A stretch of DNA of 64,000 nucleotides from Bacteroidota bacterium (GCA_947475205.1 CANJNG010000004.1:2769-66768), one strand, 5' to 3'; shown: positions 7,814 through 52,962, counted from the first letter of the stretch. Made by a program: numbers and translations. The notes: generated by a model not told the origin, from the sequence alone.

Positions 7814-10369
7814 TCATGGTTTCTTAATAAATATAAACTGCCCACCTTCATCTCCCGTGTTTTTAATGGGAGAAAATTTTGGTGTTTGTTCAGAATTGTT
7901 AATTACCGGAATTTTCACTTTGGTGTAAAGCTGACTGGCATCGAAGTATTTGCTTTGGTTTGATTCAAGCGTTTTTAGGAAATAATAGGCAAACACAGAG
8001 TGGCCATCTTTGCCGCCATCCATCACGGGTTCGAGTCCGCCTGATGTAAGTGCCTGGCGACTACTTAGGCTTTGAACTTCTTTGTAGTATTTTTCTGATT
8101 CTTCAAACGGCACCGAAACAGTATTTCCACGGAAGATATCCCCGCTAAAGCAAGCATCGGAAACTAATAAGGTGTGCTTACCCTTTATTCCGCTTATATA
8201 GGTTTGGATATCGGAATTGGAAATATACTTGGCTGTAGAAGAATTTTCGGCATCTGCCGGCACCCAATATCCTTTATTCAGCTCTTTTTTGTATTCGCCG
8301 TGGCCGGAATAGTAAATGAACACATTGTCTTCTGCTTTTACGTTGGCCACCAACCATTCTAATTGGGCAATTATATTTTCACGATTGGCTTGCTCGTTAT
8401 AAAGGGTTTTGAAAAACTCGAATTTGTAGCTGGCACGAAGCAGCTTTTCAATGGCACGGGCATCGTTGGTGGCATTTTGCAGTACCGGCCAAGTGCCTTT
8501 ATATTTATCAATCCCGATAATGAGAGCGTAATAATTGCCAATGACCATTGTTTTGGCTTTCGACACATTTAAACCTTTAAGGGGATCGCCACCTCCTCGA
8601 TACAAATTGGCATTAGGGTCGGTTTTTTGTTGTTCCAATTCGTTGGCCTGAGCTATAACATCAGCCGAATAGTCTTCGCCCGCCGAAAGGTTTTCGTTCA
8701 ACTTTACTCGTAGAATTAACTCTTTTGCATTGGTGAAAGCCGCTCCTTCAATATCCACTCCCATTTTTATTTCAGAAAGGGTAAATGTTTTATCTGCATA
8801 AAACTCCATAGCTATTTCTCGCTCTTCGCCTGCTGCCATTGCAGGGATTTGCTCTGAAATTTTATTCACCGCAAAAACGTGTTCAGGTAGCAGGAAATTC
8901 ACCTTAATATTTCGGGCTGCCCCTTTTGTAATGTTTTTAATTTTTAGTTTTAGCGTAATTGGAGCACCAATTTCAGCTTTTCCTGTGGCAGAAGTGTAGC
9001 TTTGATTCATCACCATGATGTAACTATAACTTCCGGCACCACCCGTTTGAAATGAGAGTCTGGTAGGGGAAGCATCGCTACCGTTGGCTTCAGAAATGTT
9101 CAACACGAATGCTCCGTTTCCGGCTTGCAAATCAGCATTGGCATTTATGGGAATACTTATACTCTGACTTTTATCCCCGCCCAAATTGCCAATAAATACT
9201 TCTTTATCAAAACTGATGTCGGACGTTGGATTATCGAGCGATAATTTTGCAATCAAACGATAGGCATCACCTTTGCTTTGATTTTTAACTGTGAATGTGA
9301 GGGATGCCTTCTCGCCTCCCTCTATTATTCCGTTGCTATTTTCATCAGCAATTGTCAGGTTAGTGCAAACTAAAGTTGGAGCAACTTCGGGCTTTGGGTA
9401 CTTTGGTAATCCGAATTTTAGTTCGGTCATATCCCAAAATATCAAGCCTCCATCTATCCCACCCGAAATCAATTGTGACATTGCACTATTAAAAGCAATT
9501 GCACTCACATTACTTCCAGTAATTCCAATTTCTTTAACCGTTTTTTCCGTTTCGGTATGCCAGATTAAAATCTTCTTGTCATCGCCGCCCGCAATAACAT
9601 ATTGCACATCGGGGCTAAACGTTACTGTATTTATCTGCCCTTTCACCCCTTCAAATTCTTTTACCTTGGTAAAAGTTTTCCCATCCCAAAGCGTTACTTT
9701 CCCATTTCCGCCGCCGCCTGCCAAATATTTCCCATCACCGCTGAAGGACAGTGCTGATACCCCTTTGCTATCAATATCTATAGTCTGAATTAAAGTTCCC
9801 GCTAGTGCATCCCAAATTTTGATGGTATTGTCTAAGGCAGCACTGACTAAGCGTTTGCCATCGGGACTAAAAACCACCGAAGTAATTTCCTTGCTGTGAC
9901 CACTGAGGGTAAAAACAGACGTTTTGCTTTTGCTATTATCCCACACCTTTAAGGAGTTGTCTTTAGCTCCGCTAACAATATAGTCGTTGATGGGATTAAA
10001 CGCCACAGCAGTAACGGCAGCAGTGTGTTCAGCCAAAATGCGAATCGGAACACCCTGAGCAATATCCACTACCCGCACTTTCATATCTGAGCAACCCGAA
10101 ACATAGAGTTTGTTACTTGCATTAATAGCCACAGCGTTCACCTTATCGTTCTGCTTCATTGCCCCTTTAAGCTTTTCAGTGGTTTTGGTGTTCCACACAA
10201 AGGTTTTGAAATCGTTTCCGCCCGATACCAAAATGTTTCCATCAGAACTTATTGCCAAAGCGTTTACGCCACCATCGTGAGCATTGGTTTTAATTTTCGC
10301 TGGCTGATCTTGGGCGTGAAGGTTGATGCCAAGGGTAATGAACCCAAACAGGATTATGCATTTTTTCAT
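7814..10369 (-). CDS. Secreted WD40-repeat / CARDB-like / caspase (peptidase C14) fusion protein
   Basis: The signal peptide is MKKCIILFGFITLGINLHAQ, from the internal Met at 10369. About seven WD40 blades follow (repeated xSGGxDxxxxxWD motifs). Two beta-sandwich CARDB-like segments come next. The C-terminal caspase domain has the His-Cys dyad (YYSGHGEY ... LLVSDACFSGDIF). Confidence 0.7.
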   Translation of the reverse strand: MKKCIILFGFITLGINLHAQDQPAKIKTNAHDGGVNALAISSDGNILVSGGNDFKTFVWNTKTTEKLKGAMKQNDKVNAVAINASNKLYVSGCSDMKVRVVDIAQGVPIRILAEHTAAVTAVAFNPINDYIVSGAKDNSLKVWDNSKSKTSVFTLSGHSKEITSVVFSPDGKRLVSAALDNTIKIWDALAGTLIQTIDIDSKGVSALSFSGDGKYLAGGGGNGKVTLWDGKTFTKVKEFEGVKGQINTVTFSPDVQYVIAGGDDKKILIWHTETEKTVKEIGITGSNVSAIAFNSAMSQLISGGIDGGLIFWDMTELKFGLPKYPKPEVAPTLVCTNLTIADENSNGIIEGGEKASLTFTVKNQSKGDAYRLIAKLSLDNPTSDISFDKEVFIGNLGGDKSQSISIPINANADLQAGNGAFVLNISEANGSDASPTRLSFQTGGAGSYSYIMVMNQSYTSATGKAEIGAPITLKLKIKNITKGAARNIKVNFLLPEHVFAVNKISEQIPAMAAGEEREIAMEFYADKTFTLSEIKMGVDIEGAAFTNAKELILRVKLNENLSAGEDYSADVIAQANELEQQKTDPNANLYRGGGDPLKGLNVSKAKTMVIGNYYALIIGIDKYKGTWPVLQNATNDARAIEKLLRASYKFEFFKTLYNEQANRENIIAQLEWLVANVKAEDNVFIYYSGHGEYKKELNKGYWVPADAENSSTAKYISNSDIQTYISGIKGKHTLLVSDACFSGDIFRGNTVSVPFEESEKYYKEVQSLSSRQALTSGGLEPVMDGGKDGHSVFAYYFLKTLESNQSKYFDASQLYTKVKIPVINNSEQTPKFSPIKNTGDEGGQFIFIKKP

Positions 10370-10481
10370 TTGGGGCAAATTTGGTGATAAATGCCGATGA
10401 AAAGAAATTAATTTCGATGTTACGATTCTCCTCAAAATTTAATAACCAGCATTTAGTTGTCTGTATTAGACTTCCAAACAA

Positions 10482-10533: not shown

Positions 10534-12360
10534 TTAGTGCGATTCCACTTCTCCATTTTGCAGTGGAACAGTTTGCTGAACAAAATCTTCAGGCATTCCA
10601 GGCTTACTGTAATCGTAAGGCCAACGGTGAACTTCAGGAATTGCTCCCGGCCAGTTACCGTGAATATGTTCTGTTGGTGCTGTCCACTCCATTGTATTTG
10701 CATTCCAAGGATTGTGCTTGGTCTTGGCTCCTTTGAAGATGCTGTAGAAGAAGTTAAACAAAAACAAGCATTGAGCAATTGCACCAAGGATAGCAAAGGT
10801 TGAAATCATTGCGTTGATATCAGAGAAACTATCGAAAAGAGCAAACTCAGTATTTGTGTAATAACGACGAGGAATACCCGCTAAACCTAAGAAGTGCATA
10901 GGAAAGAACACTCCATAAACGCTAACAATAGTAAGCCAAAAGTGAGCAAACCCTAATTGTTTGTTCATCATCTTGCCATACATCCGAGGAAACCAGTGAT
11001 AAACGCCGGCAAACATTCCAAAGATAGCTGATGCACCCATTACGATGTGGAAGTGAGCCACAACGAAATAAGTATCGTGGATGTTAATATCCAAGGCAGA
11101 ATCACCAAGAATGATACCAGTAAGACCACCTGTGATGAAGGTTGAAACCAATCCTACAGCAAACAACATTGCTGGAGTGAAAACGATATTCCCTTTCCAA
11201 AGTGTGGTGATGTAGTTAAATACTTTTACCGCAGATGGAATAGCCACAAGCAGTGTTGTGAAAGTAAATACAGAACCTAAGAATGGATTCATACCGGTGA
11301 TGAACATGTGGTGACCCCAAACGATAAAGGAAAGGAAAGCGATAACCAAAATTGAACCAATCATCGCCTTGTAACCAAAGATAGGTTTACGTGCATTGGT
11401 AGAGATAATCTCAGAAGTTAAACCAAGTGCAGGAAGAAGTACGATATATACCTCAGGGTGTCCTAAGAACCAAAATAAGTGTTGGAAAAGGATTGGTGAT
11501 CCACCGGTGTGTTCCAAGGCTTGACCTCCGATATAGATATCAGAAAGGTAGAATGAAGTACCAAAAGAACGGTCAAAGATTAATAGCAGAGCAGCTGCAA
11601 ACAAAACTGGGAACGAAAGAACACCTAAGATAGCTGTTACTAAGAAAGCCCAGATAGTAAGAGGAAGGCGAGTCATCGACATTCCCTTTACACGAAGATT
11701 CACAACAGTAACGATGTAATTTAAACTTCCAAGTAATGAGGACACTATGAATATTGCCATACTTACCAACCAAAGCGTCATACCCATTCCTGAACCCGGC
11801 ATGGCTTGTGGCAATGCACTTAAAGGAGGATAAATGGTCCAACCTCCTGATGCCGGTCCTGTTTCTAAGAACAGAGAAATAACCATGATTACACTTGAAA
11901 GTAAAAAGAACCAATATGATAGCATATTCAAAAAGCCGGAAGCCATATCCCTTGCTCCAATTTGAAAAGGAATCAAAAGGTTAGAGAAGGTACCGCTTAA
12001 TCCGCCGGTCAATACAAAGAATACCATAATTGTACCGTGGATTGTAACCAAAGCTAAATACATATCCGGGGCAAGAACTCCACCCGGAGCCCATTTGCCT
12101 AAGAATGTTTCTAATATTGGGAACGACTTTCCTGGCCAGCCTAGTTGCAGACGGAAGAAGATGGACATCATCATCGCCAAAATGCCCATAAATACTGCAG
12201 TTACCAAAAACTGCTTTGAAATCATTTTATGGTCTTGCGAGAAAACGTATTTACTTATAAATGACTCCTCGTGGTGATCGTGGTCGTCGTGAAAATGCTC
12301 GTGATCGTGGCCATGAGCATCGTGGTGGCCGTGATCCAATGTTTCAGCGTGTGATGACAT
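10534..12360 (-). CDS. ctaD: Cytochrome c oxidase (caa3-type) subunit I
   Basis: 608 aa. It has about 12 TM helices and heme-copper oxidase signatures (WFFGHPEVYIVLLPALG; HHMF; the GxxHFH region). It also has an unusual His-rich N-terminal extension (HGHHDAHGHDHEHFHDDHDHHEE). Confidence 0.9.
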   Translation of the reverse strand: MSSHAETLDHGHHDAHGHDHEHFHDDHDHHEESFISKYVFSQDHKMISKQFLVTAVFMGILAMMMSIFFRLQLGWPGKSFPILETFLGKWAPGGVLAPDMYLALVTIHGTIMVFFVLTGGLSGTFSNLLIPFQIGARDMASGFLNMLSYWFFLLSSVIMVISLFLETGPASGGWTIYPPLSALPQAMPGSGMGMTLWLVSMAIFIVSSLLGSLNYIVTVVNLRVKGMSMTRLPLTIWAFLVTAILGVLSFPVLFAAALLLIFDRSFGTSFYLSDIYIGGQALEHTGGSPILFQHLFWFLGHPEVYIVLLPALGLTSEIISTNARKPIFGYKAMIGSILVIAFLSFIVWGHHMFITGMNPFLGSVFTFTTLLVAIPSAVKVFNYITTLWKGNIVFTPAMLFAVGLVSTFITGGLTGIILGDSALDINIHDTYFVVAHFHIVMGASAIFGMFAGVYHWFPRMYGKMMNKQLGFAHFWLTIVSVYGVFFPMHFLGLAGIPRRYYTNTEFALFDSFSDINAMISTFAILGAIAQCLFLFNFFYSIFKGAKTKHNPWNANTMEWTAPTEHIHGNWPGAIPEVHRWPYDYSKPGMPEDFVQQTVPLQNGEVESH

Positions 12361-23044: not shown

Positions 23045-23220
23045 AATTTCTAGTTTTTAAAAGGTTAGTAAATATTGAATTATGACTGTAAAATTAAAAA
23101 CCCACTAAATTGCAAACGTTAAATTTTATTAACAAAATATTAACTGCTAGGAAACCCCAATCTGGGCATTATGTTCCCGCCCGTCTACAACCTAAAACCG
23201 ACCGGTAATTTCATATCCAA

Positions 23221-23472
23221 ACACGTGTTTTGCCAAGGTTCTATATGTAGAATGATGCCCGGACACGTGTTTTGCCAAGGTTCTATATGTGGAATGATGC
23301 CCGGACACGTGTTTTGCCAAGGTTCTACATGTAGAATGATGCCCGGACACGTGTTTTGCCAAGGTTCTATATGTAGAATGATGCCCGGACACATGTTTTG
23401 CCAAGGTTCTATAGTTAGAATGATGTCCGGACACGTGTTTTGCCAAGGTTCTATATGTGGAATGATGCTCGA
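23221..23472. repeat. Tandem array, 42-bp unit x6, each unit carrying ACACGTGT and TTCTA-N4-TAGAA palindromes
   Basis: Units start at 23221, 23263, 23305, 23347, 23389 and 23431. The consensus is ACACGTGTTTTGCCAAGGTTCTATATGTAGAATGATGCCCGG with 1-3 substitutions per unit. The ORFs at 23171..23545 and on the complementary strand are repeat artefacts. Confidence 0.9.
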
Positions 23473-23709
23473 TAAGTTTATTTTGCTAAAGGGTAGGTGT
23501 GATATTTATAGAATGGGATTATTCGGGGGTATTTGGATGGGGTAGGATGTGCGATGGGGTAGAGGGTTCAGATTTTATTTGTGGGATATTTAAAAATAGG
23601 CCTTAGACCTACAACGCGAAAGGGCAAGGTTGATAAGCTTTGCTCAGCGAAGTTTTGGGTTATCTAGGAGTGAGCTATAGATTTTATTGCATTTCCTATT
23701 TTTGCTCCA

Positions 23710-24487: not shown

Positions 24488-25336
24488 TTAATGCTGTACG
24501 CTTATTCTTGCATTTATGTGGCGATGACCTACTGTTAGTTTCAGTAAGTAAATGCCATTAGCCAAATTGCCGGTATTAAAGTCCACTTCGGTGATTCCTG
24601 ATGCCATAAATACATTATTTGTCGCCGAAATAGATTGCCCCAAACAGTTTTCTAAGCTATAAGATACATCATTAGGTTTGTCTAAGTTCAACCGAAGTTT
24701 GGTTGCCTCGTTAGCTGGATTTGGGAACAAATCATAACTAAAATCAAGATCCATGATTTCGGTAGTGCTATTAGGCGATATTCCGCACTTGCCAGCAATA
24801 TAATCTCTTAAATTTACTTCATTGGTAAGTGAATTGCTTAGTTTGTAAAGTTTCTTATCCTCGCAAACCACAAATATTGCAGGTAAACCATACGTTTGTC
24901 CGGGCTGCACGAATTTCAGAACAACAGAATTAGAATTTGCGGGATCGCAAATCGGATGGGTAGTCCCCGTAATCCAATCGCCTTGAGTATTTGTACCCGT
25001 TCCTTGCAAATCCGCCATATCTGTTGAATTATCCACTTCGTAAAGAAACACTTCTGCATCTTTTACTTCACTTGTTCCCGTAGGTCCATATAGATTATAG
25101 TATCTATCCAGCACTTCGCTTTGATGATACCCCCAACATATTCCGCACCAAGTAGCCGACAAATCAATAATGACATGTTTGCCTGCATTTGTCATAGTAA
25201 ACAGGTCGTGGCTTACGTTGTTTAAATCGGTAAGTGTAGCGGTAGTAGAAATTGCGGTTCCGTCCGGATAATACACCTGAGATCTAGAAGTGAAGGCTGT
25301 GGCTAAAATAGCCAATAAGAGTAGGTTTTTTTTCAT
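24488..25336 (-). CDS. Secreted thioredoxin-like protein with T9SS C-terminal sorting domain
   Basis: It has a signal peptide (MKKNLLLLAILATAFTSRSQ) and a CxxC motif in thioredoxin-like context (DLSATWCGICWGYH). The C-terminal Por secretion tail reads NGIYLLKLTVGHRHINARISVQH. Confidence 0.65.
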   Translation of the reverse strand: MKKNLLLLAILATAFTSRSQVYYPDGTAISTTATLTDLNNVSHDLFTMTNAGKHVIIDLSATWCGICWGYHQSEVLDRYYNLYGPTGTSEVKDAEVFLYEVDNSTDMADLQGTGTNTQGDWITGTTHPICDPANSNSVVLKFVQPGQTYGLPAIFVVCEDKKLYKLSNSLTNEVNLRDYIAGKCGISPNSTTEIMDLDFSYDLFPNPANEATKLRLNLDKPNDVSYSLENCLGQSISATNNVFMASGITEVDFNTGNLANGIYLLKLTVGHRHINARISVQH

Positions 25337-25601
25337 GACGAATATTTTCGTTTGGTTAATATAGACTACAAATATAGTATATCTGTTAAATATAAAGTTA
25401 GCATCCGTTGAAATAAATTCCTCTTATGGTAACTTTTCATCCAAATTTTAGACGCCTGAAGATTAGCCCCCGACCTATACTGACTCCAATCAAAGGAAGT
25501 TTCGGCTACGAAATTTGCTAATTGATATTAACGTTTGGTTCATAAACAATGGGGTAATTGTCATACTTTTCATCCAATTTTTCCACACCTTTGCCACCCC
25601 A

Positions 25602-28226
25602 ATGAGCAAAGCCACCACCGCAGCGGAAACCCCGCTGATGAAGCAATACAACGGCATTAAGTCCAAACATCCCGATGCGATATTGCTGTTTAGGGTAGGC
25701 GATTTCTACGAAACATTTGGCGAAGATGCCGTGAAGGCTTCCAAGGTGCTGGGCATCGTGCTTACCAAGCGGGGAAGTGGTTCGGCTACCGAGGTGGCTT
25801 TGGCCGGATTTCCCTACCACTCCCTCGAAACGTATTTGCCGAAATTGGTTCGGGCAGGCTATCGGGTGGCGGTGTGTGACCAGTTAGAAGATCCCAAGTT
25901 TACCAAAACCATTGTGAAGCGGGGCGTCACCGAAATGGTAACGCCGGGGGTAACGTTTAATGACCATATACTCGAAGCTAAATCGAACAACTTTTTGGCA
26001 GCAGTGTATTTTGACAAAACACAGTTCGGGCTTGCTTTTCTCGATGTATCCACCGGTGAGTTTCTAGCCGGAGCGGGAGATAAAGAATATGCCGACAAGT
26101 TGCTGCAAAGCTTCCGGCCCGGAGAAATTCTTTTCCCTAAACAAAACAAGAACATTTTCAGGGAAAACTTTGGCGGCATCAGCTCTGAGTTTGGGCTGGA
26201 AGATTGGGTGTTCTCCGACGATTATTCGCAAGAACTGCTGCTCAAGCATTTCGCCACCAAATCGCTAAAAGGTTTTGGGTTTGAAAAGAACGGATTGCAT
26301 ACCATAGCGGCGGGTGCGGCACTGCATTATTTGTCTGAAACCCGCCACGACAGGCTGAAACATATCACGAAGCTTCAGCTTATCCAAGAAGAGAATTTCG
26401 TTTGGCTGGATAAGTTCACGATTCGTAACCTCGAAATATTTGGTACAAACACACCAGGAGGAACAGCCTTGGTGGATATTCTGGATAATACATGCACGCC
26501 GATGGGTGGCCGCTTGCTGAAACGCTGGGTGGCATTGCCGCTCAAAAACCGCAAGGCGATAGAAGACCGATTGAATGCGGTTTCAGAACTGAAGGACAAT
26601 GCAGAGCTGAAAGATAATCTGCAAAAGCACCTGTCTTCGGTAGGCGATTTGGAAAGGCTGATGTCGAAGATTGCGGCAGCACGCATCAATCCCCGCGAGG
26701 TAGTGCAACTCCGAAGAACCTTAGAATTGCTTGTTCCGATAAAGGAACTGTGCCTGTCGGCCAACTCCGCTCCGCTCAAACATATAGGCGAACAACTGAA
26801 CCCCTGCCTTTCTATGGTGGAGAAGATTTTCAATGAGGTGCAAGAAGACCCACCGGCATTGGTAAACAAAGGCGGAGTGATAAAAACGGGTGTGAATGCC
26901 GAGTTGGACGAACTACGAGCAATAAGCTCAGCAGGGAAAGATTACCTGCTGCAAGTGCAGCAACGCGAAGCCCTCAAAACGGGCATTACCTCGCTAAAGG
27001 TGGCCTACAATCAGGTGTTTGGTTACTATATTGAAGTGACCAACGCCCACAAAAGTAGAGTGCCCGAAGAATGGGTGCGGAAGCAAACCCTCACCGGTGC
27101 CGAACGCTATATAACCGAGGAGCTAAAAGAATACGAAACCAAGATATTGGGGGCAGAAGAGAAGATTCTGGGCTTGGAAACCCGTCTCTTCGAAGAGTTG
27201 GTTACCGCCTTGGGCGAATACACCGAAGCGGTGCAATTGGATGCTACCTTGGTGGCAAGGCTCGACTGTTTGGTGAACTTTGCCCAAATAGCTATTGACA
27301 ACAACTACGCAAAACCACACCTGAACGATGGCAACATCCTTTCTATAAAACAGGCACGTCACCCGGTTATTGAAAAGCTATTGGCGGTGGGCGAAGAGTA
27401 TGTGCCGAATGATATTCTGCTCGACCCCGAAGATTGTCAGGTGATTATTATGACGGGGCCCAATATGTCGGGTAAATCTGCCTTGCTTCGGCAAACTGCT
27501 TTGGTGGTTATCATGGCTCAGATTGGCTGCTTTGTGCCTGCCCAAAGTGCCGAGATAGGCGTGGTGGACAAAATCTTCACTCGTGTGGGAGCGTCAGACA
27601 ACATTAGTTCGGGAGAGAGTACGTTTATGGTGGAAATGAACGAAACGGCCAGCATCCTGAATAACCTAACACCGAAATCCTTGGTAATATTGGACGAGAT
27701 AGGCCGAGGAACCAGCACCTACGATGGTATTTCTATTGCCTGGGCTATTACGGAATTCCTGCACGAACATCCTTCGGCACGGGCCAAAACAATGTTTGCT
27801 ACTCACTACCACGAACTGAACGAGATGGAAAAGTCCCTTAGCCGTGTGCGGAACTTCTCCATTGCAATAAAGGAGATAAACAACAAGATTATCTTTTTGC
27901 GAAAGCTAATTGCAGGTGGTAGCGAACATAGCTTCGGGATACACGTTGCCCGCATGGCCGGAATGCCGCCCAAGGTGATAGAGCGTGCCAACCAAATACT
28001 TTCGCACCTCGAAAAAGACCATAGTTCGGAAGTCCTAACGGATAGTAAACCTTCCACGGGCAAAAAGGCCGCCCAGCCCGATTACCAGCTTAGCTTCTTC
28101 CAACTCGACGACCCGGTTCTTTCGCAAATCAAAGACGAAATATTGAAAACGGACATCAACACCTTAACTCCTGTGGAGGCTTTGATGAAGCTGAATGAGA
28201 TTAAGAAGGTGCTGTTGGGGAAATGA
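25602..28226 (+). CDS. mutS: DNA mismatch repair protein MutS
   Basis: The ATG at 25602 gives [37 protein letters not shown]... Walker A is GPNMSGKS, and the [12 protein letters not shown] and HYHEL motifs are present. Length is about 875 aa. Confidence 0.92.
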
Positions 28227-28279
28227 ATTGACAATTAACAACGGCGAAGCCCTCTTGTCATCATTTAAAACAAACTAAA

Positions 28280-29032
28280 TTGACAAAATTGCCAATGAGC
28301 AGAACTTGCTTGCTTTTATTGTTGTTGCTTGCTTTTGAAGGCAAGGGACAATTACGGGGGAAGTATTGTTATACGTATACACTAGAAACGGAATGTTTGA
28401 ATTTCTTGAATGATTCGGTTTTAGAACGTGAATGTGAAAATTTTGAGCATGTGAAACAATCCAAATCTATAATGTGGTACACTGTAGAAGGAAATATGTT
28501 GCGATTTAAATCTATTCGGACAAAACCATTTCTCCAAAATACTGAGGTTGTAGAGATTGATGATGTTCCTGAACTGGAAATAAGCAAATCCCCTAGTGTA
28601 AAGGACTCTTTAAGTGTGTGTGTGAAAGTCTTTGATTTTAAAACTAAAGAAGAATTGAAAAACCTGGATTGTAGTATGACACTATTTCAAAACGGCAAAA
28701 GAATTGCCACAGCTAAGTCCCCAAGAAATTCAGCGATTGTTCCCTGCATCAAAATGAAAGGGCAATTGGATTCTCTTAGATTAAACATCTATGGATTTGA
28801 ATATTACAGAGCAAATAACATTGAAATCAAATCGGGGAACTCATACAGTATTAATGCTTTTTTGAAACCAATGCAACTTGAATCAATACATCCGGTTTTA
28901 ATAATCCCCAAGACTTTTGTATATGAAGTTGGTGATATTAAAAGGGAATACATTGAGTTGAAAGGAGAGCACTCACCAGATAGTTATTGGGAAGGCGTTC
29001 ATCAAAAGGTGAAATATTTGCGGGTGAAATAA
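28280..29032 (+). CDS. Hypothetical secreted protein (low-GC cassette inserted at the mutS 3' end)
   Basis: 250 aa with a hydrophobic N-terminus (LLLLLLLAFEGKG). No domain was recognised. The gene is about 35% GC against about 48% for mutS. Copies of the mutS terminus flank it. Confidence 0.5.
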   Translation: MTKLPMSRTCLLLLLLLAFEGKGQLRGKYCYTYTLETECLNFLNDSVLERECENFEHVKQSKSIMWYTVEGNMLRFKSIRTKPFLQNTEVVEIDDVPELEISKSPSVKDSLSVCVKVFDFKTKEELKNLDCSMTLFQNGKRIATAKSPRNSAIVPCIKMKGQLDSLRLNIYGFEYYRANNIEIKSGNSYSINAFLKPMQLESIHPVLIIPKTFVYEVGDIKREYIELKGEHSPDSYWEGVHQKVKYLRVK

Positions 29033-29045
29033 TTCTTGGCTTTAA

Positions 29046-29070
29046 TGAAACTGAATGAGATTAAGAAGGT
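29046..29070 (+). repeat. Partial second copy of the mutS 3' terminus (TGAAACTGAATGAGATTAAGAAGGT)
   Basis: 24 of 25 bases match 28186-28210 (TGAAGCTGAATGAGATTAAGAAGGT). Confidence 0.8.
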
Positions 29071-29071
29071 A

Positions 29072-29361
29072 CTACTCCACCTCGCCACCATATCTAATGT
29101 GATAGATAATTATACTTTGTTTACCCACCTTGTAAGCAAATACCCATTTTTTGTCAAATGTGGCACAATGTAGCCCTTGAGCCAAAAGTTTGGGGCTTTT
29201 ACATAGTGGATAAGCCTTGTAATAATTTCCGAGATGGTAGCCAAACTCAATTAAACTTTCGGCATACTTAATTGCCGTTTCCGGCATTTTTATTCAGTAG
29301 CAATATAGTCGGCTATTTGTTCAATACTTGATAGTGCTGCTTTTCTGATAAGCACTTTCAT
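29072..29361 (-). pseudogene. ParE/RelE-family type II toxin, disrupted by a 2-bp insertion (N-terminal 23-aa ORF plus C-terminal 71-aa ORF)
   Basis: The reverse strand encodes MKVLIRKAALSSIEQIADYIATE, then a stop, then in the +2 frame MPETAIKYAESLIEFGYHLGNYY...WVFAYKVGKQSIIIYHIRYGGEVE. Together they fit the ParE pattern (A-x-x-D-L-x-x-I-x-x-Y-I ... P-x-x-A ... Y-R-V-x-x-x-x-I-x-I-x-R-I-x-H). Removing TA from the complement of 29291-29292 would fuse them into a single ~95-aa ORF. Confidence 0.5.
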
Positions 29362-29555
29362 TACTTGGCCATTTTCTTTGCTTCAATTCTTTTACTCACC
29401 TCCCCTTTGAGTTCAGCAGCAAAAACATCAAACGAAACTGTATCAGCCTCTTCGTCCAAAAACACAATACCCTTACTCTTTTCGGCCAATACTTTTGCAG
29501 CAGCTAATAGTGCTTTCCCCGCATTGGTGTTTTCGTTTATTTCTATGGTAACCAT
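29361..29555 (-). CDS. Putative antitoxin of the ParE-like module
   Basis: 64-aa ORF directly upstream of the toxin. Its TAA stop shares the A of the toxin ATG (TAATG overlap). It is a small charged protein without a recognisable fold. Confidence 0.4.
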   Translation of the reverse strand: MVTIEINENTNAGKALLAAAKVLAEKSKGIVFLDEEADTVSFDVFAAELKGEVSKRIEAKKMAK

Positions 29556-29599
29556 TTGGTGAAAATTGATAAAGCAAAGATATAGGATTTGAGTAAGCC

Positions 29600-29656
29600 C
29601 CTGTGGAGGCTTTGATGAAGCTGAATTAGATTAAGAAGGTGTTTCTTGGGAGGGGA
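29600..29656 (+). repeat. Third copy of the mutS 3' terminus (about 45 bp with 1 mismatch, then divergent tail)
   Basis: CCTGTGGAGGCTTTGATGAAGCTGAATTAGATTAAGAAGGTG compared with authentic CCTGTGGAGGCTTTGATGAAGCTGAATGAGATTAAGAAGGTG at 28170-28211. Confidence 0.85.
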
Positions 29657-29796
29657 GGATTTGATGACTATTCCATTAAGTTATCTATACACTTGGTTTG
29701 ATATTACTCGATAATTCCCAAAAAAATTATTTTCCATCCCACACAATATCTTTTCCATTTTTCTGTTATGTGTATCAAAAACATACCTAATCAAAA

Positions 29797-31251
29797 ATGA
29801 AACTACCTTTGCCGCCCACAATGTCTTCTCGGATTCTACTTTTTTCTGCCATCATTGCCTTTCTTTGGCTTGGATTTTCTTCCTGTAAAAAGGATAAATT
29901 TACCACCAATGGTGCTTTAGATTTCAGTAACGATACCGTAATTTTCGACACCGTTTTTACTCAAATTGGCTCGTCCACCAAAGCGTTTAAGATTTACAAT
30001 ACCCACAACGAGAATATCCGCATCAGCAAAATATACATTGCGGGAGGCGAAACAAGTAAGTATAGGATGAATATTGACGGGGTTTCCGGTCGGGTTTTTA
30101 CCGATATTGAAATTGCCCCAAACGACAGTATGTGGGGTTTTGTAGAAGTTACCCTCGACCCCAACAATCAAAACACCCCGCTCATTGTTACCGATAGCAT
30201 TATCTTTGAAACCAACGGGGTTCAGCAAGATATAGATTTGGTGGCTTTTGGTCAGGACGCTATTTTCCTCTATCCCGAACCCGGTAATTTTGGCTTTTAC
30301 CTTGATTGCAGCGAACTTAACTGGAATAGCACAAAACCTTATGTGATATATGGCCAGGCAATTGTTAAACCTGGCTGCACTCTAGATATGGCTCCGGGTA
30401 CTCGGGTTTATATTCATAAATATTCCAGTTTGGCTATTGCAGAGGGGGCGGGCTTAGATATTCATGGGACTAAATCAGATAGTGTAATAATTCAAGGCGA
30501 TCGTTTAGAGTTGGACTACCGCGAACTACCCGGTCAGTGGCAAGGACTTTTCATCAAACAACCCATATTGGCCAATATTGATTATGCCGTTATTAAAAAT
30601 GGCAATTTGGGAATATTCTGTGATGGTGATAGCACAAATTCTATTCCGGCTTCTGCCACTGTTCATATTACCAATACTAAGGTCTTAAATATGGGAGCAA
30701 CCTGCTTTTATGGCCGGCATAGCAAAGTTAAGATGGAGAATTGTGTTTGGGGGAATGGAGCACAGTATGTTGCAGCATTTACTCAGGGAGGGGATTATGA
30801 ATGCAATAATTGCACCTTTGCTGATTATTATTCTTATGCTACTCGTAACACCCCTGCCGTACTCATTACCAATTATTTTCAAGACGAAAATGACGTGGTC
30901 TATTCTTACGACCTAACAAATATTCTTTTTAATAATTGCCTGATATATGGCAGTAATCCTTCTGAATTAGAATTTAGTAATCAAGGTGGCGGCCAATTTA
31001 ATTATAAGTTTAGAAATACTATGTTTCGGGTTAAAGATGATTTCAGTTCATCGGATGCCAATTATTTTGAATCCATTTACAGAAACCCCAATGGTGACAG
31101 CTTGTTCGTGAACTCGGCCATCAATGACTACCATTTAAGACAAACTTCACCTGCAAGAGACAAAGGCAATAGCGGTGCAACACCAATAGATATTGATGGT
31201 AAACCCCGTGATAGCTCCCCCGACCTTGGTGCTTATGAATTTATTCCGTAG
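29797..31251 (+). CDS. Putative lipoprotein with right-handed parallel beta-helix (pectate-lyase-like) repeats
   Basis: The N-terminus has a signal with a possible lipobox (WLGFSSC). Multiple N/G/T-rich repeats are typical of beta-helix proteins (NGNLGIFCDGDSTNS, NTKVLNMGATCFYGRHS, NNCLIYGSNPSE). Confidence 0.55.
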   Translation: MKLPLPPTMSSRILLFSAIIAFLWLGFSSCKKDKFTTNGALDFSNDTVIFDTVFTQIGSSTKAFKIYNTHNENIRISKIYIAGGETSKYRMNIDGVSGRVFTDIEIAPNDSMWGFVEVTLDPNNQNTPLIVTDSIIFETNGVQQDIDLVAFGQDAIFLYPEPGNFGFYLDCSELNWNSTKPYVIYGQAIVKPGCTLDMAPGTRVYIHKYSSLAIAEGAGLDIHGTKSDSVIIQGDRLELDYRELPGQWQGLFIKQPILANIDYAVIKNGNLGIFCDGDSTNSIPASATVHITNTKVLNMGATCFYGRHSKVKMENCVWGNGAQYVAAFTQGGDYECNNCTFADYYSYATRNTPAVLITNYFQDENDVVYSYDLTNILFNNCLIYGSNPSELEFSNQGGGQFNYKFRNTMFRVKDDFSSSDANYFESIYRNPNGDSLFVNSAINDYHLRQTSPARDKGNSGATPIDIDGKPRDSSPDLGAYEFIP

Positions 31252-43202: not shown

Positions 43203-43538
43203 TTATTTTTGAACTATACTATTCCTAAGTTGGATTTCGAGCTGCGGCAATTGATTTTCAACTATTCGCCAAACGGCAAAGAAATCAGTCCCCATATAAT
43301 CGTGTATCAAAACATCACGCATTCCAGCAATTTTTTTCCACGGAATTTCGGAATGCATTTCTCTAAAGGGTATTGAAAGCCTTTTAGTGGCCTCGCCCAT
43401 TATTTCAAAACATCTTACAACAGCATTGCATGTTTTCTTGTCTTTCAAAAACGAATCTTGTGTGTAACCGAGTGTAAATTCCTTAATTTGGTCAATGGCA
43501 TCCAAGATGTGACCAACGTAAATGGTGTCGTCTTTCAT
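43203..43538 (-). CDS. HepT-like (DUF86) toxin of HepT/MNT type II TA pair
   Basis: 111 aa with the R-x(4)-HxY-like motif region (MRDVLIHDY). It overlaps the upstream MNT gene by 1 nt. Confidence 0.75.
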   Translation of the reverse strand: MKDDTIYVGHILDAIDQIKEFTLGYTQDSFLKDKKTCNAVVRCFEIMGEATKRLSIPFREMHSEIPWKKIAGMRDVLIHDYMGTDFFAVWRIVENQLPQLEIQLRNSIVQK

Positions 43539-43819
43539 TAATTGATTTGCCTTAAATCCTTTTGGATTAGGGTACTCAAAACCACCGAAAGCGACTGCTT
43601 AGTAACCAAATCAATGCGAATGCCCAACTTTTCAGACAAGGCTTCTTTGATGTCGAATAAATCGAATAAGTCATATTCAGAATTCAAATCAACCAATAAG
43701 TCTAAATCGCTATCTGGGCGATTTTGGTTACGAGAATAAGAGCCAAATACACCAACATAGACCGGATTATAGGGCAATAACACCGCTAAAATTGTTTGTT
43801 GCTGTTGGGTAGATAGCAT
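43538..43819 (-). CDS. Minimal nucleotidyltransferase (MNT) antitoxin
   Basis: The GSxxRG-type motif is VGVFGSYSRNQNRPDSDLDLLVDL. Confidence 0.75.
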   Translation of the reverse strand: MLSTQQQQTILAVLLPYNPVYVGVFGSYSRNQNRPDSDLDLLVDLNSEYDLFDLFDIKEALSEKLGIRIDLVTKQSLSVVLSTLIQKDLRQIN

Positions 43820-47262: not shown

Positions 47263-47811
47263 TTTGAAGTTATGAACACTTATATTAATTAAATCAATTT
47301 GTATTTTTTGAAATTTATAAAAATTAAAACCTTTTACTATTAATGATAGCCTGTTGAAACGGTTAGTAACCCTTGAAAAACGGGTGTTTTCCCGCAAGGT
47401 TATCAGCTACAGAATCCGGAGTTTTAAACATATTACAATTTGGCAAAAGTACAGAAATCAGCTACTTGTAAAGTAATTAACAAAGGCTGTAAAAACTTAT
47501 CATTTTCCCCGAAAAACATCTCTCCTTTTGTGTGTACTACTTGTGTGTAACTGCTCCCTAAAAAAGCATAAGTTTATGTAATTCGGCTGCATTCTATGCT
47601 AATGCACATTCCCAAACGATATACAAGCATAAAGTTTTGGAATTCTTCACACACACTAACCCGCCGTAGCTAACAATAAAACAGGGCAATTGTTAATAGA
47701 AAAAGCAGATTTTAGCATTGTAGTGAAAAGCTGTTCATAACCTGTGAATAGCTAACAAATTCATTTTTGGAGCAGAACTTTCCATCTTCCATCCCAACGT
47801 TTGGGTCCCGC

Positions 47812-47925
47812 TTTCGCCTATAGCCGCCTCAAATGCAGGCGGGCTATTTGGCTCTACCGGGGCTAGGGAGACAGGGAAGTGCTTTGATGGGAGGGTGTTT
47901 AATACCATTCGGGGGCATAAAAACG
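47812..47925 (+). repeat. About 110-bp element, copy A (GCCTATAGCCGCC...GGCGGGCTATTTGGC hairpin plus downstream conserved block)
   Basis: About 80% identical to 48574-48680. It lies roughly 70 bp upstream of the vapB-like gene. Confidence 0.8.
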
Positions 47926-47997: not shown

Positions 47998-48189
47998 ATG
48001 ACTGTTATTCTTAAAAAAACCGACAGCCCCGAGGAGGTGAAACGGAAGATAGACCAGTTTATGGAAGCAAGAAGGTCGAAGAACTCCCCAAAAGAAGGGT
48101 TTGACCCCAGCAGATTTTTGGGAAAGTTGAAAGGAATGTATGGCGACCCCATGGAATATCAAAGGAGCGTTCGAGATGAGTGGGCTTGA
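47998..48189 (+). CDS. Putative antitoxin (VapB-like partner of the PIN toxin)
   Basis: 63 aa, charged. Its TGA stop lies 14 bp inside the PIN gene (ATGAGTGGGCTTGA overlap). Confidence 0.5.
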   Translation: MTVILKKTDSPEEVKRKIDQFMEARRSKNSPKEGFDPSRFLGKLKGMYGDPMEYQRSVRDEWA

Positions 48190-48550
48190 ATTATACTTGG
48201 TCGATACCAATATTTATATCCATTTATTTAATGGGAATATAAACGCCGAAAACGCTTTGAAAGGAAGGGTTTTGTATTTTTCCTACATTACCGAGATAGA
48301 GCTTTTGGGCTTTACCGGAATAAGCCCAGAGGCCATTCAAATAGTTAAGGATACACTGGCCTGCAATGTAAAAATTGACCACACCGAAACCATTACTCAA
48401 AAAGCTATTTGGCTGAAACAGCAGCAGAAAATGAAAACTCCCGATGCCATTATTGTAGCCACAGCAATATTGAACAATCTCCCTCTACTCACTGCCGATA
48501 AGGCCTTAGCCAATATCCCTGATTTAGACTGTATCCTCTTTGAAGGGTAA
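48176..48550 (+). CDS. vapC: PIN-domain toxin VapC
   Basis: Three acidic PIN residues sit in context: LYLVDTNIYIH, TPDAIIVATA and LLTADKAL. Confidence 0.75.
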   Translation: MSGLELYLVDTNIYIHLFNGNINAENALKGRVLYFSYITEIELLGFTGISPEAIQIVKDTLACNVKIDHTETITQKAIWLKQQQKMKTPDAIIVATAILNNLPLLTADKALANIPDLDCILFEG

Positions 48551-48573
48551 ACTCCCATAACATTTACTGCCTC

Positions 48574-48680
48574 TTTTGCCTATAGCCGCCCCAAATGCTG
48601 GTGGGCTATTTGGCTCAATCGGGGCTAGGTCGACAGGGCGATGCTATAATGGGCGGGTGCTAAATACCCATTCGGCAAAA
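48574..48680 (+). repeat. About 110-bp element, copy B
   Basis: The block runs TTTGCCTATAGCCGCCCCAAATGCTGGTGGGCTATTTGGCTC...GATGCTATAATGGGCGGGTGCTAAATACCCATTCGG. It contains a TGcTATAAT-like extended -10 box. It lies about 100 bp upstream of the methyltransferase gene. Confidence 0.8.
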
Positions 48681-48784
48681 ATCCAACGTTAATAAATAAG
48701 GATATATATTTTTTGAATCTTATTAAATGAATCAATTTCAGTTGTTCTTTTGTAACCATTGTATAAGGTTAAACTACTTGGTTA

Positions 48785-50025
48785 TGAAAGACTATTTATC
48801 ATTGACAGAAACTTCTGAGTATCTTGGGAAAAGCAAACAAACGCTAAGAAGATGGGATAAAGAAAAAAAGCTTGTTGCTGTTCGAGAGCCCATGAGTAAT
48901 TATAGGGTTTATAAAAGAGAACAACTTGAACTCTTTGCTGATTTCATTTCAAATACAGACAAAACTGATTATCCCAATGAAATAGATTCAGAAAACGAGT
49001 ACTCCGTTTTAGAACTATTTGCAGGAGCTGGTGGCTTAGCTGTAGGCTTGGAAAAAGCAGGATTAAAATGCGTTGCCTTAAATGAGATTGATAAATGGGC
49101 TTGCCAAACCTTAAGAAGAAACAGACCCAACTGGAAGGTGCTTGAGGGGGATATTAGAGCATTTGATTTCGTTGAATATAGAGATAGGGTCGATGTTGTT
49201 ACCGGAGGATTTCCATGCCAAGCCTTTAGTTATGCTGGCAAAAGACTTGGGTTGAGCGATGCCCGTGGAACTTTGTTTTACGAATTTGCAAGAGTGGTAA
49301 ATGAAATAAAACCACCAATTTGTATCGGTGAAAATGTGAGAGGGCTTTTAAGTCATGATAATGGCAGGACGTTAAGCGGAATGATTTCCATATTAGATGA
49401 AATTGGCTATAAAGTAGTTCCATATCGAATCCTGAAAGCGATAAACTATTATGTGCCGCAGAAAAGAGAACGATTGATTTTAGTTGGAGTTAGGAAAGAT
49501 ATTCAGATTGAATATCACTATCCAAAACCCACTAAGAAAATCTACACCCTAGCGGATGCACTAAAGAAAGGAGAACTATTTGACAAGGATGTTCCTGTTT
49601 CTGCCGGGGCTAAATATCCAAAGAGTAAAATTGATGTCATGAATTTGGTGCCTCCAAAGGGCTATTGGAGAGATTTGCCTTTAGATATCCAAAAGGAATT
49701 TATGGGTGGAAGTTTCTACCTTGGTGGAGGTAAGACCGGGATGGCAAGAAGAATAGGATGGGATGAGCCTTGCTTGACGCTTACTTGCAGCCCTGCTCAA
49801 AAGCAAACCGAAAGATGTCACCCCGATGAAACAAGACCTTTTACAGTAAGAGAATATGCCCGCATTCAAACATTCCCTGATGACTGGGAATTTGAAGGCT
49901 CAGTTGCTCAGCAATACAAGCAAATTGGAAATGCTGTACCAGTTAACTTAGGCAAGGAGGTTGGCTATTCCATAATCGAATTTTTGAATCAATATTATGC
50001 TCTAAAAGCCGAAAGAATAAAGTAA
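48785..50025 (+). CDS. DNA (cytosine-5)-methyltransferase with N-terminal MerR/Xis-like HTH
   Basis: C5-MTase motifs are present: I ELFAGAGGLAVG, IV GGFPCQAFSYAGK, VI ENVRGLL, and X near the C-terminus (GNAVPVNLG). The N-terminus reads LSLTETSEYLGKSKQTLRRWDKEKKL, consistent with an HTH. The start may instead be at 48727. Confidence 0.9.
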
Positions 50026-50733
50026 CTACTTGTATTTTTCTTGAATTTCTTTGGCCAGAGATTTTATAGTTTGTTCCACTACCTTACTTGCGTCAACTTC
50101 TAAAGCAACTTCACCAATGGCGTCAATCAATTCAAAATAAAAGTCGTCTTTTCCTGTAAGCCTATGCCAAAAATCTTTCCCAACAAAAACAGGATATGTA
50201 TTTCCGATTTTTTTATAATGTGAGCTAAGTTCTGCTGCTTCGCCATATACCACACAAACTATCATATCGTTGATGCCAACATTTATATTATTGGTTCTGG
50301 CAAGGCTACGAACGCCATTAAAGTGATTAATTATGGTAGTTACATCGTCATGATTGATTGTGTTTGGCCCTGCTTTTAACTGACAATATTTTTTCCTTCC
50401 GTCAATTGCATCTATAAATTCAATGTCGATTCCTTGAGTAGTAGAACCTAAGCCCTGAAATAAGGTGCTGATTAAACTCTGAATCTTCATTCCAAAGGAA
50501 GTATTAATTGAAGAGCCTAAAATTCGTGGCAGAACAAGAGCCCGGGCAATGCTTTCCGCATCATCGTTCCCTGTAAGGAAATTTGCCAGGTATTTAAATA
50601 AAAAGGGGTTAACATTGTATTCCGACAGTTTACTTGCTCTTTTGCAAGCACCGTCAATATGGCTTTGTACAATTTCATTTCTGAAAAACGTTTTTGCATT
50701 TTCAATTATTTGTTTTCTCTGACTATTGTTCAT
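50026..50733 (-). CDS. Putative type II restriction endonuclease (cognate of the C5-MTase)
   Basis: 235-aa ORF convergent with the MTase gene, with stop codons 1 bp apart. It has a candidate PD-(D/E)xK-like segment (GIDIEFIDAIDGRKKYCQLK). The region is low in GC. Confidence 0.45.
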   Translation of the reverse strand: MNNSQRKQIIENAKTFFRNEIVQSHIDGACKRASKLSEYNVNPFLFKYLANFLTGNDDAESIARALVLPRILGSSINTSFGMKIQSLISTLFQGLGSTTQGIDIEFIDAIDGRKKYCQLKAGPNTINHDDVTTIINHFNGVRSLARTNNINVGINDMIVCVVYGEAAELSSHYKKIGNTYPVFVGKDFWHRLTGKDDFYFELIDAIGEVALEVDASKVVEQTIKSLAKEIQEKYK

Positions 50734-50943
50734 TAGGTTACTATCAGATTCGGAGTTTATGCATTACAGAATTGCCTCAAAACTATATTAAATTCAACCT
50801 CGACAGATTTTCATTGTACAAATATGATTTCCCGTAACTTTCGTATACAACCATTTTTTTTCCTAATCACCTTACCTGTTAATAAATAAGTATATATATT
50901 TGCCCCTCAAATGGCAATAATCCTTACCTTTATAAGCCCGAAA

Positions 50944-50984
<41 letters not shown>

Positions 50985-51040
50985 TAAGCTATTAAATTCC
51001 AAAAAAATTTTTTCCGGGTTTAACGAAGGGAAGCAAACAG

Positions 51041-51300
51041 GGTCTATTTCTGTCCGAAGTAAGGCTATTTCCATCCGAAATAGGGCTGTTTCCATTCGAA
51101 ATAGGGCTGTTTCCATCCGAAACAGGGCTGTTTCCGTCCGAAATAGGGCTATTTCCATCCGAAATAGGGCTATTTCCATCCGAAGTAAGGCTATTTCCAT
51201 CCGAAACAGGGCTGTTTCCATCCGAAACAGGGCTGTTTCCATCCGAAATAGGGCTGTTTCCATCCGAAATAGGGCTGTTTCCATCCGAAATAGGTCTATT
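51041..51300. repeat. 21-bp minisatellite, about 12 units (consensus GGCTGTTTCCATCCGAAATAG)
   Basis: Units differ at 1-3 positions (ATTT vs GTTT, AATAG vs AACAG vs AGTAA). The ORFs 50911..51306 (+) and 50982..51284/50992..51312 (-) are repeat artefacts. Confidence 0.9.
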
Positions 51301-51362
51301 TTCTAAACTCAAAACTTCGTTTACATCTTAAATATTTATATTAATCCCTAAAAATCAATACA

Positions 51363-51980: not shown

Positions 51981-52006
51981 GCATTTATGTAATAAAGTAT
52001 AAAAAG

Positions 52007-52056
52007 GGCGAAGCGAATGTGGCTTCGCCTTTTTTTATGCCCACCCATGCCACGCC
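52007..52056 (+). terminator. Rho-independent terminator (GGCGAAGC-loop-GCTTCGCC + T7) followed by conserved box ATGCCCACCCATGCCACGCC
   Basis: The perfect 8-bp stem at 52007-52029 has T-run 52030-52036. The 27-nt string TTTTTTTATGCCCACCCATGCCACGCC recurs at 52936-52962, after the next gene. Confidence 0.7.
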
Positions 52057-52890: not shown

Positions 52891-52911
52891 TCATTATCTA
52901 AATTAAAAAAA

Positions 52912-52962
52912 GGGCGTGGCTTAATTAGCTACGCCTTTTTTTATGCCCACCCATGCCACGCC
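52912..52962 (+). terminator. Second terminator plus ATGCCCACCCATGCCACGCC box
   Basis: An imperfect hairpin (GGGCGTGGCTTAATTAGCTACGCC) is followed by T7, then an identical 20-nt box. Confidence 0.6.

Follow-up and report, generated by a model that had tools for sequence, protein, structure and literature searches.

The gene mutS in a 64,000-nt stretch of an uncultured freshwater Bacteroidota bacterium (GCA_947475205.1 CANJNG010000004.1:2769-66768, one strand; this whole stretch is called the window below) is followed by two displaced copies of its own 3′ end, and the three termini bound two small gene cassettes. We consider it about an even chance that these are non-autonomous cassettes that insert by homology-dependent recombination, each bringing a replacement mutS terminus with it. 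The evidence comprises the copies and their boundaries, the coding signature preserved in them, the re-use of one cassette in a second array found on contig L095, the lack of any recombinase gene in the 64-kb window, and several other repeat-bounded units in the same DNA. All sequence data for this host come from metagenome assemblies.

Three copies of the mutS terminus

The working end of mutS (copy A; coordinates of all features are collected in Table 1) encodes an 18-residue motif, the MutS C-terminal motif, which is conserved in every Bacteroidota MutS examined. A 33-nt core of this repeat, GGCTTTGATGAAGCTGAATGAGATTAAGAAGGT, is found exactly at 28178-28210, with two mismatches at 29038-29070 in copy B and with one mismatch at 29608-29640 in copy C; matches to it arose in none of 100 shuffles, and no fourth copy is present in the 64-kb window. 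Copies A and C share 41 of the 42 nucleotides of the longer core (28170-28211 versus 29600-29641), the sole difference converting GAG to TAG, whereas 7 of the 15 nucleotides of the copy C tail, up to the position of the mutS stop codon, differ from copy A, and the former stop codon reads GGA. This abrupt step in identity therefore marks a recombination boundary and not uniform decay. Copy B starts at TGG-CTTT (29037) and can be traced to 29077. The shared repeat is thus 42 nt long for the A/C pair (57 nt with the tail) and 33-41 nt for the A/B and B/C pairs, and all copies extend at reduced identity through the VLLGK* tail. The left boundaries differ among the copies (CTGAAAAC..., CCTGTGG..., TGGAGG..., TGG-CTTT...), and no inverted repeat or attC-like hairpin was detected in the repeats, their folding z-scores ranging from -1.65 to +0.39. 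A preliminary description of this DNA had already reported the threefold recurrence of the mutS end, which holds with revised limits: the gene ends at 28226 and not at 28211, and copy B spans 29037-29077 and not 29046-29070. A dispersed repeat was considered and rejected, as the only three copies in 64 kb all lie just 3′ of mutS and their sequence is the coding end of this gene.

Eight contigs that differ in sample and assembly (ENA and the NCBI metagenome-assembled genomes GCA_947477075.1 and GCA_947468485.1) equal the window base for base over 28101-29800, and because these separately assembled contigs are identical, the array is no assembly artefact. The gene mutS itself is a compositional outlier, with 49% GC and a GC content at third codon positions (GC3) of 0.57, the highest of 55 genes (mean 0.40, standard deviation 0.06). 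This high GC3 is even from the first to the last codons, and the composition suggests that the mutS allele itself was horizontally acquired.

Coding signature of the copies

Since the repeats are coding, they record whether each copy once was a working gene end. Copy B differs from the present working end at five codons, all of which are synonymous in the mutS frame, and r1, the first mutS-end copy of L095, differs at six, five of them synonymous and one changing K to R. For random substitution the expected synonymous share is ~21%; in the 42-nt core alone, five of the six changes are synonymous (P ~0.002). Duplication in situ followed by neutral decay is ruled out by these statistics. Because the changes are almost exclusively synonymous, copy B and r1 appear to have evolved as genuine mutS ends, and they look like former working C-termini of MutS that were shaped by selection, not like duplicates decaying on the spot. 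Moreover, where the working end has G-ending codons, copy B carries synonymous ones ending in A/T, as is typical of the genome, which fits its origin from a mutS allele with the usual codon usage of this genome. Copy C likewise differs from the working end at five codons, namely one nonsense change in the core and, in the tail, L to F, a synonymous L to L, K to R and stop to Gly.

Cargo genes

The unit between copies A and B measures 860 nt and that between B and C 570 nt; both contain cargo open reading frames (ORFs) only, without remnants of integration or transfer genes. In the first unit, a leader, conserved between the window and the L095 cassette over its initial ~15 nt (TTGACAATTAAC) and over the ~15 nt that adjoin the ATG, precedes the gene here called cargo 1. 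Its product, predicted to be secreted from its signal-peptide-like hydrophobic N-terminus, matched no family in Pfam, NCBIfam or PHROGs and has a single homolog, P0122 (36% identity), among 5.8 billion proteins. The genes for cargo 1 and P0122 are conserved at the nucleotide level at their ends and saturated in the middle; an AlphaFold2 model of the 245-aa form of the protein was unusable (predicted local distance difference test score, pLDDT, 40).

The second unit carries a toxin pseudogene, whose stop codon lies directly next to the copy B core, and a putative antitoxin gene. With its frameshift repaired, the toxin aligns along its whole length with Pfam ParE_toxin (E 0.003; 18.5 bits, below the gathering score of 23) and matches PHROG 2455 (E 1.6e-6), and a low-confidence model finds its best Foldseek matches, all below significance, among ParE toxins. 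The gene can fairly be called a “ParE-like pseudogene”. No family match was obtained for the 64-aa putative antitoxin; the ParDE arrangement of a small antitoxin ORF overlapping the toxin start is present, and the toxin itself is neither an above-threshold ParE nor intact. Hence, of the ParE-type toxin-antitoxin pair proposed in the preliminary description, the layout and the likeness to ParE stand, and what has to be added is that the toxin is frameshifted and its family match sub-threshold. The cassettes had also been called low in GC; this holds for the 245-aa gene (35%), while the toxin-antitoxin genes (39-40%) are close to the window mean of 41% and mutS is the actual outlier.

A second array on an unrelated metagenome contig

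The contig encoding P0122, L095, is an unrelated metagenome contig of 3.1 kb and carries the same kind of mutS-end array. Its order is HigBA, r1 (16 residues), the P0122 gene, a decayed repeat r2, a retropepsin-like aspartyl protease gene, r3, a hairpin and a convergent gene with a sorting tail of the type IX secretion system (T9SS); r3 is a longer relic of a mutS end, encoding 28 residues. The cargo 1 homolog is thus placed between mutS-end repeats with HigBA upstream and the protease downstream, and the different cargo between the same repeats for which the earlier account had proposed to search does exist. In positions 1-640 of L095, HigB has an in-frame stop and HigA is frameshifted, so that toxins are inactive in both arrays.

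The leader following the repeat (TTGACAATTA...) is common to the window and L095, the right-hand junction of cargo 1 (GGGTGAAATAATTC.TGG...) is identical in the two, and the left junction of copy B (AATAATTC.TGG) also occurs in r2; beyond each flanking repeat, however, the window is unlike L095. The shared leader and right junction together with the different outer sequence mean that the same cassette, with both of its repeats, is present in two arrays next to different partners, i.e., the cassette has been re-used in a modular way.

The 125-aa aspartyl protease of L095 (1486-1863) has 145-aa homologs of at least 90% amino acid identity in GC-rich genomes (L098). These homologs show no detectable nucleotide similarity and stand in non-mutS contexts, and no further arrays were found by way of them.

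Search for a recombinase

Neither Pfam scans of the window ORFs of at least 90 aa nor the gene tables of overlapping contigs revealed an integrase, transposase or resolvase, and tblastn with a Bacteroidota tyrosine integrase gave no match in the window or within 10 kb of mutS in 80 surveyed loci, which bears out the earlier statement that the window holds no integrase or transposase. No integrase or remnant of one was found in L095. No record with a mutS-end fragment, as expected of an attP-like site, was present in phage, plasmid and viral collections, the search of viral contigs covering the repeat in the sequence form it has here. No integrase-bearing element using a mutS-end attachment (att) site was encountered in the window, the 80 mutS loci or these collections. 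The integron features sought were also missing, as the window has no intI and no attC-like repeats. Unlike the repeats of tRNA- or tmRNA-targeting islands, the mutS repeat is not the 3′ part of such a gene, and no tRNA, tmRNA or other Rfam match was found in the window, a permissive Rfam threshold being blank as well for the array and for the 99-nt repeat described below.

Two kinds of candidates were examined and discarded. L096, an IMG/VR prophage and the only viral contig with the motif, has its integrase beside tRNA genes 3′ of a complete mutS; because the integrase adjoins tRNA genes, the element targets a tRNA and not mutS. The “phage” record MT837444 and the “plasmid” matches contain full-length mutS genes and so represent misfiled chromosomal DNA, not attP.

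In many Bacteroidota (L008, L022, L026, L053, L096), genes for tRNA-Gly(gcc) and tRNA-Leu(taa) are located 3′ of mutS. A second copy of the tRNA-Leu 3′ part, 350-860 nt farther along, delimits tiny att-bounded islets, and it is these tRNA genes that the tyrosine integrase of L096 adjoins.

The mutS loci of relatives

The survey covered 80 Bacteroidota mutS loci with a MutS identity of at most 65% and a downstream flank of up to 10 kb, less at contig ends. A second copy of the locus's own mutS end was detected in none of them by a nucleotide scan and a six-frame motif scan. The nearest relatives have a MutS identity of 77-83% and neighbor genes that differ from those of the window; in most of them, other genes begin within ~35 nt of the single mutS end. 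A sister lineage has the conserved order M16 peptidase, mutS, CarbopepD_reg_2, IMPDH and is free of cassettes, as are the further sister-lineage mutS loci that were retrieved. No empty site with conserved synteny was found among the nearest relatives, and the data contain no true empty site because the synteny around mutS is not conserved. A scan of metagenome contigs of the Joint Genome Institute (JGI) with a degenerate repeat pattern returned one ordinary mutS end only.

Two contigs of a sister species, L090 and L091, give a hint of polymorphism: identical in mutS over 2633 nt, they diverge from precisely the third stop-codon base onward (TAG versus TAA). Past the stop codon, L091 is AT-rich and contains TTTGTCAATAAAC, reminiscent of the cassette leader; the contig covers 35 nt of this flank.

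Other repeat-bounded units in the window

A scan of the whole window for direct repeats showed that the 3′ array is not the only unit of this form. The 5′ end of mutS, with ~35 nt of upstream DNA and the first ten codons, is present in a displaced copy as well; the two copies (57-64 nt) are ~95% identical and enclose the gene of a protein with a T9SS sorting tail. This 5′ bracket mirrors the arrangement on the 3′ side.

Three further units are bounded by repeats unrelated to mutS. A restriction-modification unit lies between 24-nt repeats and has the look of a textbook insertion with target duplication. A VapBC-like pair is enclosed by a 99-nt structured repeat, a relative of which is also located 3′ of mutS in L102 (~11660-11790); RNAalifold predicted a hairpin with six compensatory pairs, and Rfam gave no match. 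This repeat may be a dispersed structured element or a small RNA rather than a target duplication. The third unit is bracketed by 64-nt repeats with a terminator hairpin, whose stems differ between the two copies at complementary positions; within its ~840 nt, a candidate lipoprotein ORF, possibly disrupted, was noticed by eye. As unrelated repeats bound units at different sites, one sequence-specific integrase cannot explain all of them, whereas a homology-dependent process can.

Table 1 Features of the mutS locus and other repeat-bounded units in the window
Feature	Position	Strand	Basis or remark
Displaced mutS 5′ end, ~35 nt upstream and first 10 codons	24417-24481	+	Partner 25567-25630
282-aa protein with T9SS sorting tail, between the mutS 5′-end copies	24488-25336	-	ORF
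mutS, 874 aa, target gene	25602-28226	+	ORF; all five MutS Pfam domains in gene tables
Copy A, working mutS terminus, 18 residues	28170-28226 (core 28170-28211, tail 28212-28226)	+	Alignment
Cargo 1 leader	28227-28294	+	Alignment with L095
Cargo 1, 245-250 aa, predicted secreted	28295-29032	+	ORF
Copy B, displaced mutS terminus, 5′-truncated	29037-29077	+	Alignment
ParE/RelE-like toxin pseudogene, ~96 aa	29072-29361	-	Frameshift in A-run near 29288-29296
Putative antitoxin, 64 aa	29361-29555	-	ORF; stop overlaps toxin start (TAATG)
Copy C, displaced mutS terminus	29600-29656	+	Alignment
Beta-helix / choice-of-anchor Q protein, 484 aa, first gene past the array	29797-31251	+	ORF, gene tables
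99-nt structured repeat, 83% identical	47808-47906, 48570-48668		Brackets VapB-like / PIN (VapC) pair, 47998-48550
24-nt direct repeat, 23/24 identical	48688-48711, 50878-50901		Brackets C5 cytosine methylase and EcoO109I-like endonuclease, 48727-50733
64-nt direct repeat with terminator hairpin, 84% identical	51993-52056, 52899-52962		Brackets ~840 nt

Proposed mechanism and alternative explanations

According to the reading preferred here, the incoming DNA would consist of a cargo gene together with its own last ~15-20 mutS codons, and such DNA would have recombined into the mutS end more than once. The incoming terminus would become the working end and the prior one would be displaced downstream as a non-coding relic; MutS would stay intact because the incoming version takes over as the terminus. 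The joining would be carried out by homology-dependent recombination of the host, with the conserved mutS terminus acting as a portable homology arm, either through a double crossover of a donor “mutS plus distal repeat” with the recipient's only mutS end or through Campbell-type insertion of a circle closed between two repeats. Being the most similar pair, copies A and C are read as the youngest event, which would have placed them on either side of a composite comprising cargo 1, copy B and the toxin-antitoxin genes; the junction at copy B would be older, with another right-hand partner in the other lineage, represented by L095. We infer the dependence on homology, this order of events and the transfer between cells. 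The coding signature and hybrid boundaries of the copies, their variable left ends, their stacking beside mutS, the mirror arrangement at the 5′ end and the missing recombinase can all be explained in this way. Insertions with long target duplication, discussed below, provide a precedent (PMC2853133).

Several points weigh against it. The arms of 33-57 nt are short for RecA-type recombination, and the identical right junction of cargo 1 and the sharp homology boundaries would also be expected of att sites. The split between L090 and L091 looks more site-specific than homology-driven. The host genome was sampled as 64 kb only, so that a recombinase could be encoded elsewhere. The contigs from within this organism are all clonal, and neither a polymorphic array nor an empty site was found among them. 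Finally, the known arrays are two in total, those of the window and L095.

Some of these points are shared by an explanation that we consider rather unlikely but the most serious of the alternatives, site-specific integration by a recombinase encoded elsewhere, in which integrase-less elements, cis-mobilizable or decayed, were inserted one after another at an att site within the 3′ end of mutS, the attP carrying the replacement end. The architecture resembles attL/attR, the gene being regenerated with an identical core and differing arms; both repeats travel with the cargo 1 cassette in two lineages with the same right junction; the divergence of L090 and L091 begins exactly at the stop codon; and islets 3′ of mutS, at tRNA-Leu, do exist in other Bacteroidota, one with an adjoining integrase. 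Tandem accretion with integrase-less members is, furthermore, well described (PMC5704250; Dehalococcoides ssrA islands, PMC3146451). Nevertheless, an integrase or its remnant was found neither in the window nor in L095 nor within 10 kb of mutS in the 80 loci, the viral, phage and plasmid collections are devoid of an attP-like mutS fragment, the left boundaries of the repeats vary, and the other units of the window use unrelated repeats, including the mutS 5′ end, which an integrase specific for the 3′ end could not explain. In the preliminary description, elements were supposed to have entered the 3′ end of the gene site-specifically; the separable units and the regenerated mutS end remain from this, and a dedicated integrase with a mutS att site is unsupported, given that none was found, that the left boundaries vary and that unrelated repeats are involved.

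Serial horizontal replacement of mutS, with incoming alleles anchoring in the gene, joining illegitimately in the resident terminus and dragging adjacent donor genes along, would make the cassettes hitchhikers and the termini fossils. In enterobacteria, mismatch-repair genes are often transferred horizontally and the mutS-rpoS region is polymorphic, and in the window mutS is the strongest outlier of the 55 genes, with uniform GC3, has fossil termini on both flanks and has neighbors wholly unlike those of the nearest relatives, copy B moreover showing A/T-ending codons against the G-ending ones of the working end. We still regard this explanation as improbable. The outer relics, copy C and the 5′ copy, hardly differ from the GC3-rich allele of today and are therefore younger than its arrival; the flanking cargo does not have a mutS-like composition, and the cassette junction shared with L095 argues for movement as a unit. 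That the array came about without any insertion, by local tandem duplication or by faulty assembly, is hardly credible: although only metagenome assemblies are available and repeats can mislead assemblers, the eight contigs agree base for base, the copies are mutually different with unique junctions, the units between them are unrelated to one another, and the synonymous-only differences exclude a recent duplication on site.

Relation to known systems

Insertion with long target duplication was reportedly recognized by Nobusato in 2000. Inserts of this kind that lack mobility genes are on record, chiefly from naturally competent species (Furuta et al. 2010, PMC2853133), and as of that 2010 survey no experiment supported a mechanism for them (PMC2853133). 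The best reading of the mutS array is that it belongs to this class, stacked at the terminus of a protein-coding housekeeping gene and with cargo other than restriction-modification genes. Common to both are small inserts (<20 kb) without mobility genes, direct repeats of more than 30 bp, which here probably correspond to a single-copy target, and “selfish” cargo, and the restriction-modification unit of the window has the same form. In contrast to the described cases, the cargo at mutS consists of toxin-antitoxin and secreted-protein genes, the events are stacked at one target, and the repeats, gene ends with a coding signature, look like donor and recipient alleles and not like duplicates of the recipient target; furthermore, no empty-site genome was found for the mutS array, the single mutS ends of the relatives lying in non-conserved synteny.

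The integrative and conjugative or mobilizable elements (ICE/IME) and their cis-mobilizable relatives, which form accretions in the Streptococcus ICESt1 family (PMC5704250) and at Dehalococcoides ssrA (PMC3146451), are similar in having one repeat of the target 3′ end per element, an intact gene, a tandem arrangement and integrase-less members. Unlike at mutS, an integrase has been identified on at least some members, and element lengths of several kb compare with 0.57-0.86 kb for the mutS units; in addition, the target here is a protein-coding housekeeping gene, and mutS as an att site was not reported in the literature searched. The microcin H47 island of E. coli is flanked by direct repeats and has no site-specific recombinase, and RecA-independent recombination between its short repeats deletes the intervening DNA (PMC3191183, PMC5426353). 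It is small, repeat-flanked and recombinase-free like the mutS units, although it is a single island in another host and its repeats are not a gene terminus. With these related insertions on record (PMC2853133, PMC5704250, PMC3146451), the earlier remark that the pattern at mutS is not a described one was too strong.

The array is, like those of integrons, composed of cassettes separated by short recombination sites. Integron cassette arrays and the pdif modules of Acinetobacter contain promoter-poor single-gene or toxin-antitoxin cassettes with short recombination sites and a recombinase encoded off the cassette. The mutS array differs from both in having no IntI, attI, attC-like hairpins or dif-like dyad, its site being the end of a coding gene.

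Former working ends among the repeats point to an arm supplied by a donor and not to a staggered cut with fill-in; if this is general, long target duplications would not be duplications but a donor allele paired with a recipient one, a prediction that can be tested wherever a genome has repeats of this type at the ends of genes. In this way, genes for toxin-antitoxin pairs and secreted proteins could spread among uncultured freshwater Bacteroidota without the machinery of mobile elements, and mutS, the loss and re-acquisition of which shape mutation rates, is flagged as a local recombination hotspot in this lineage. As a tentative extension, possible but not probable, the ultra-conserved terminus of a housekeeping gene (here both ends of mutS) may serve as the portable recombination arm of a recurrent, integrase-less cassette platform, whose cassettes, each with a replacement terminus of its own, would hop between related lineages and stack; the stacked ends would then form a legible fossil record of earlier gene termini. 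Its bolder version, an integron-like system with an undiscovered dedicated recombinase, seems very improbable.

Further features of the window

A HepT / MNT (nucleotidyltransferase) toxin-antitoxin pair is located at 43203-43819 on the minus strand between an acyl-CoA dehydrogenase gene and radC; no repeat was found flanking it. Two tandem repeats occur within ORFs, one with a 42-nt period and ~8 copies (23179-23513, within ORF 23171-23545) and the other with a 21-nt period and ~17 copies (50999-51355, within ORF 50911-51306), which encodes SIRNRAV heptads. An 873-aa protein encoded on the minus strand at 7814-10435 combines a WD40 propeller at its N-terminus with a caspase (Peptidase_C14) domain at its C-terminus.

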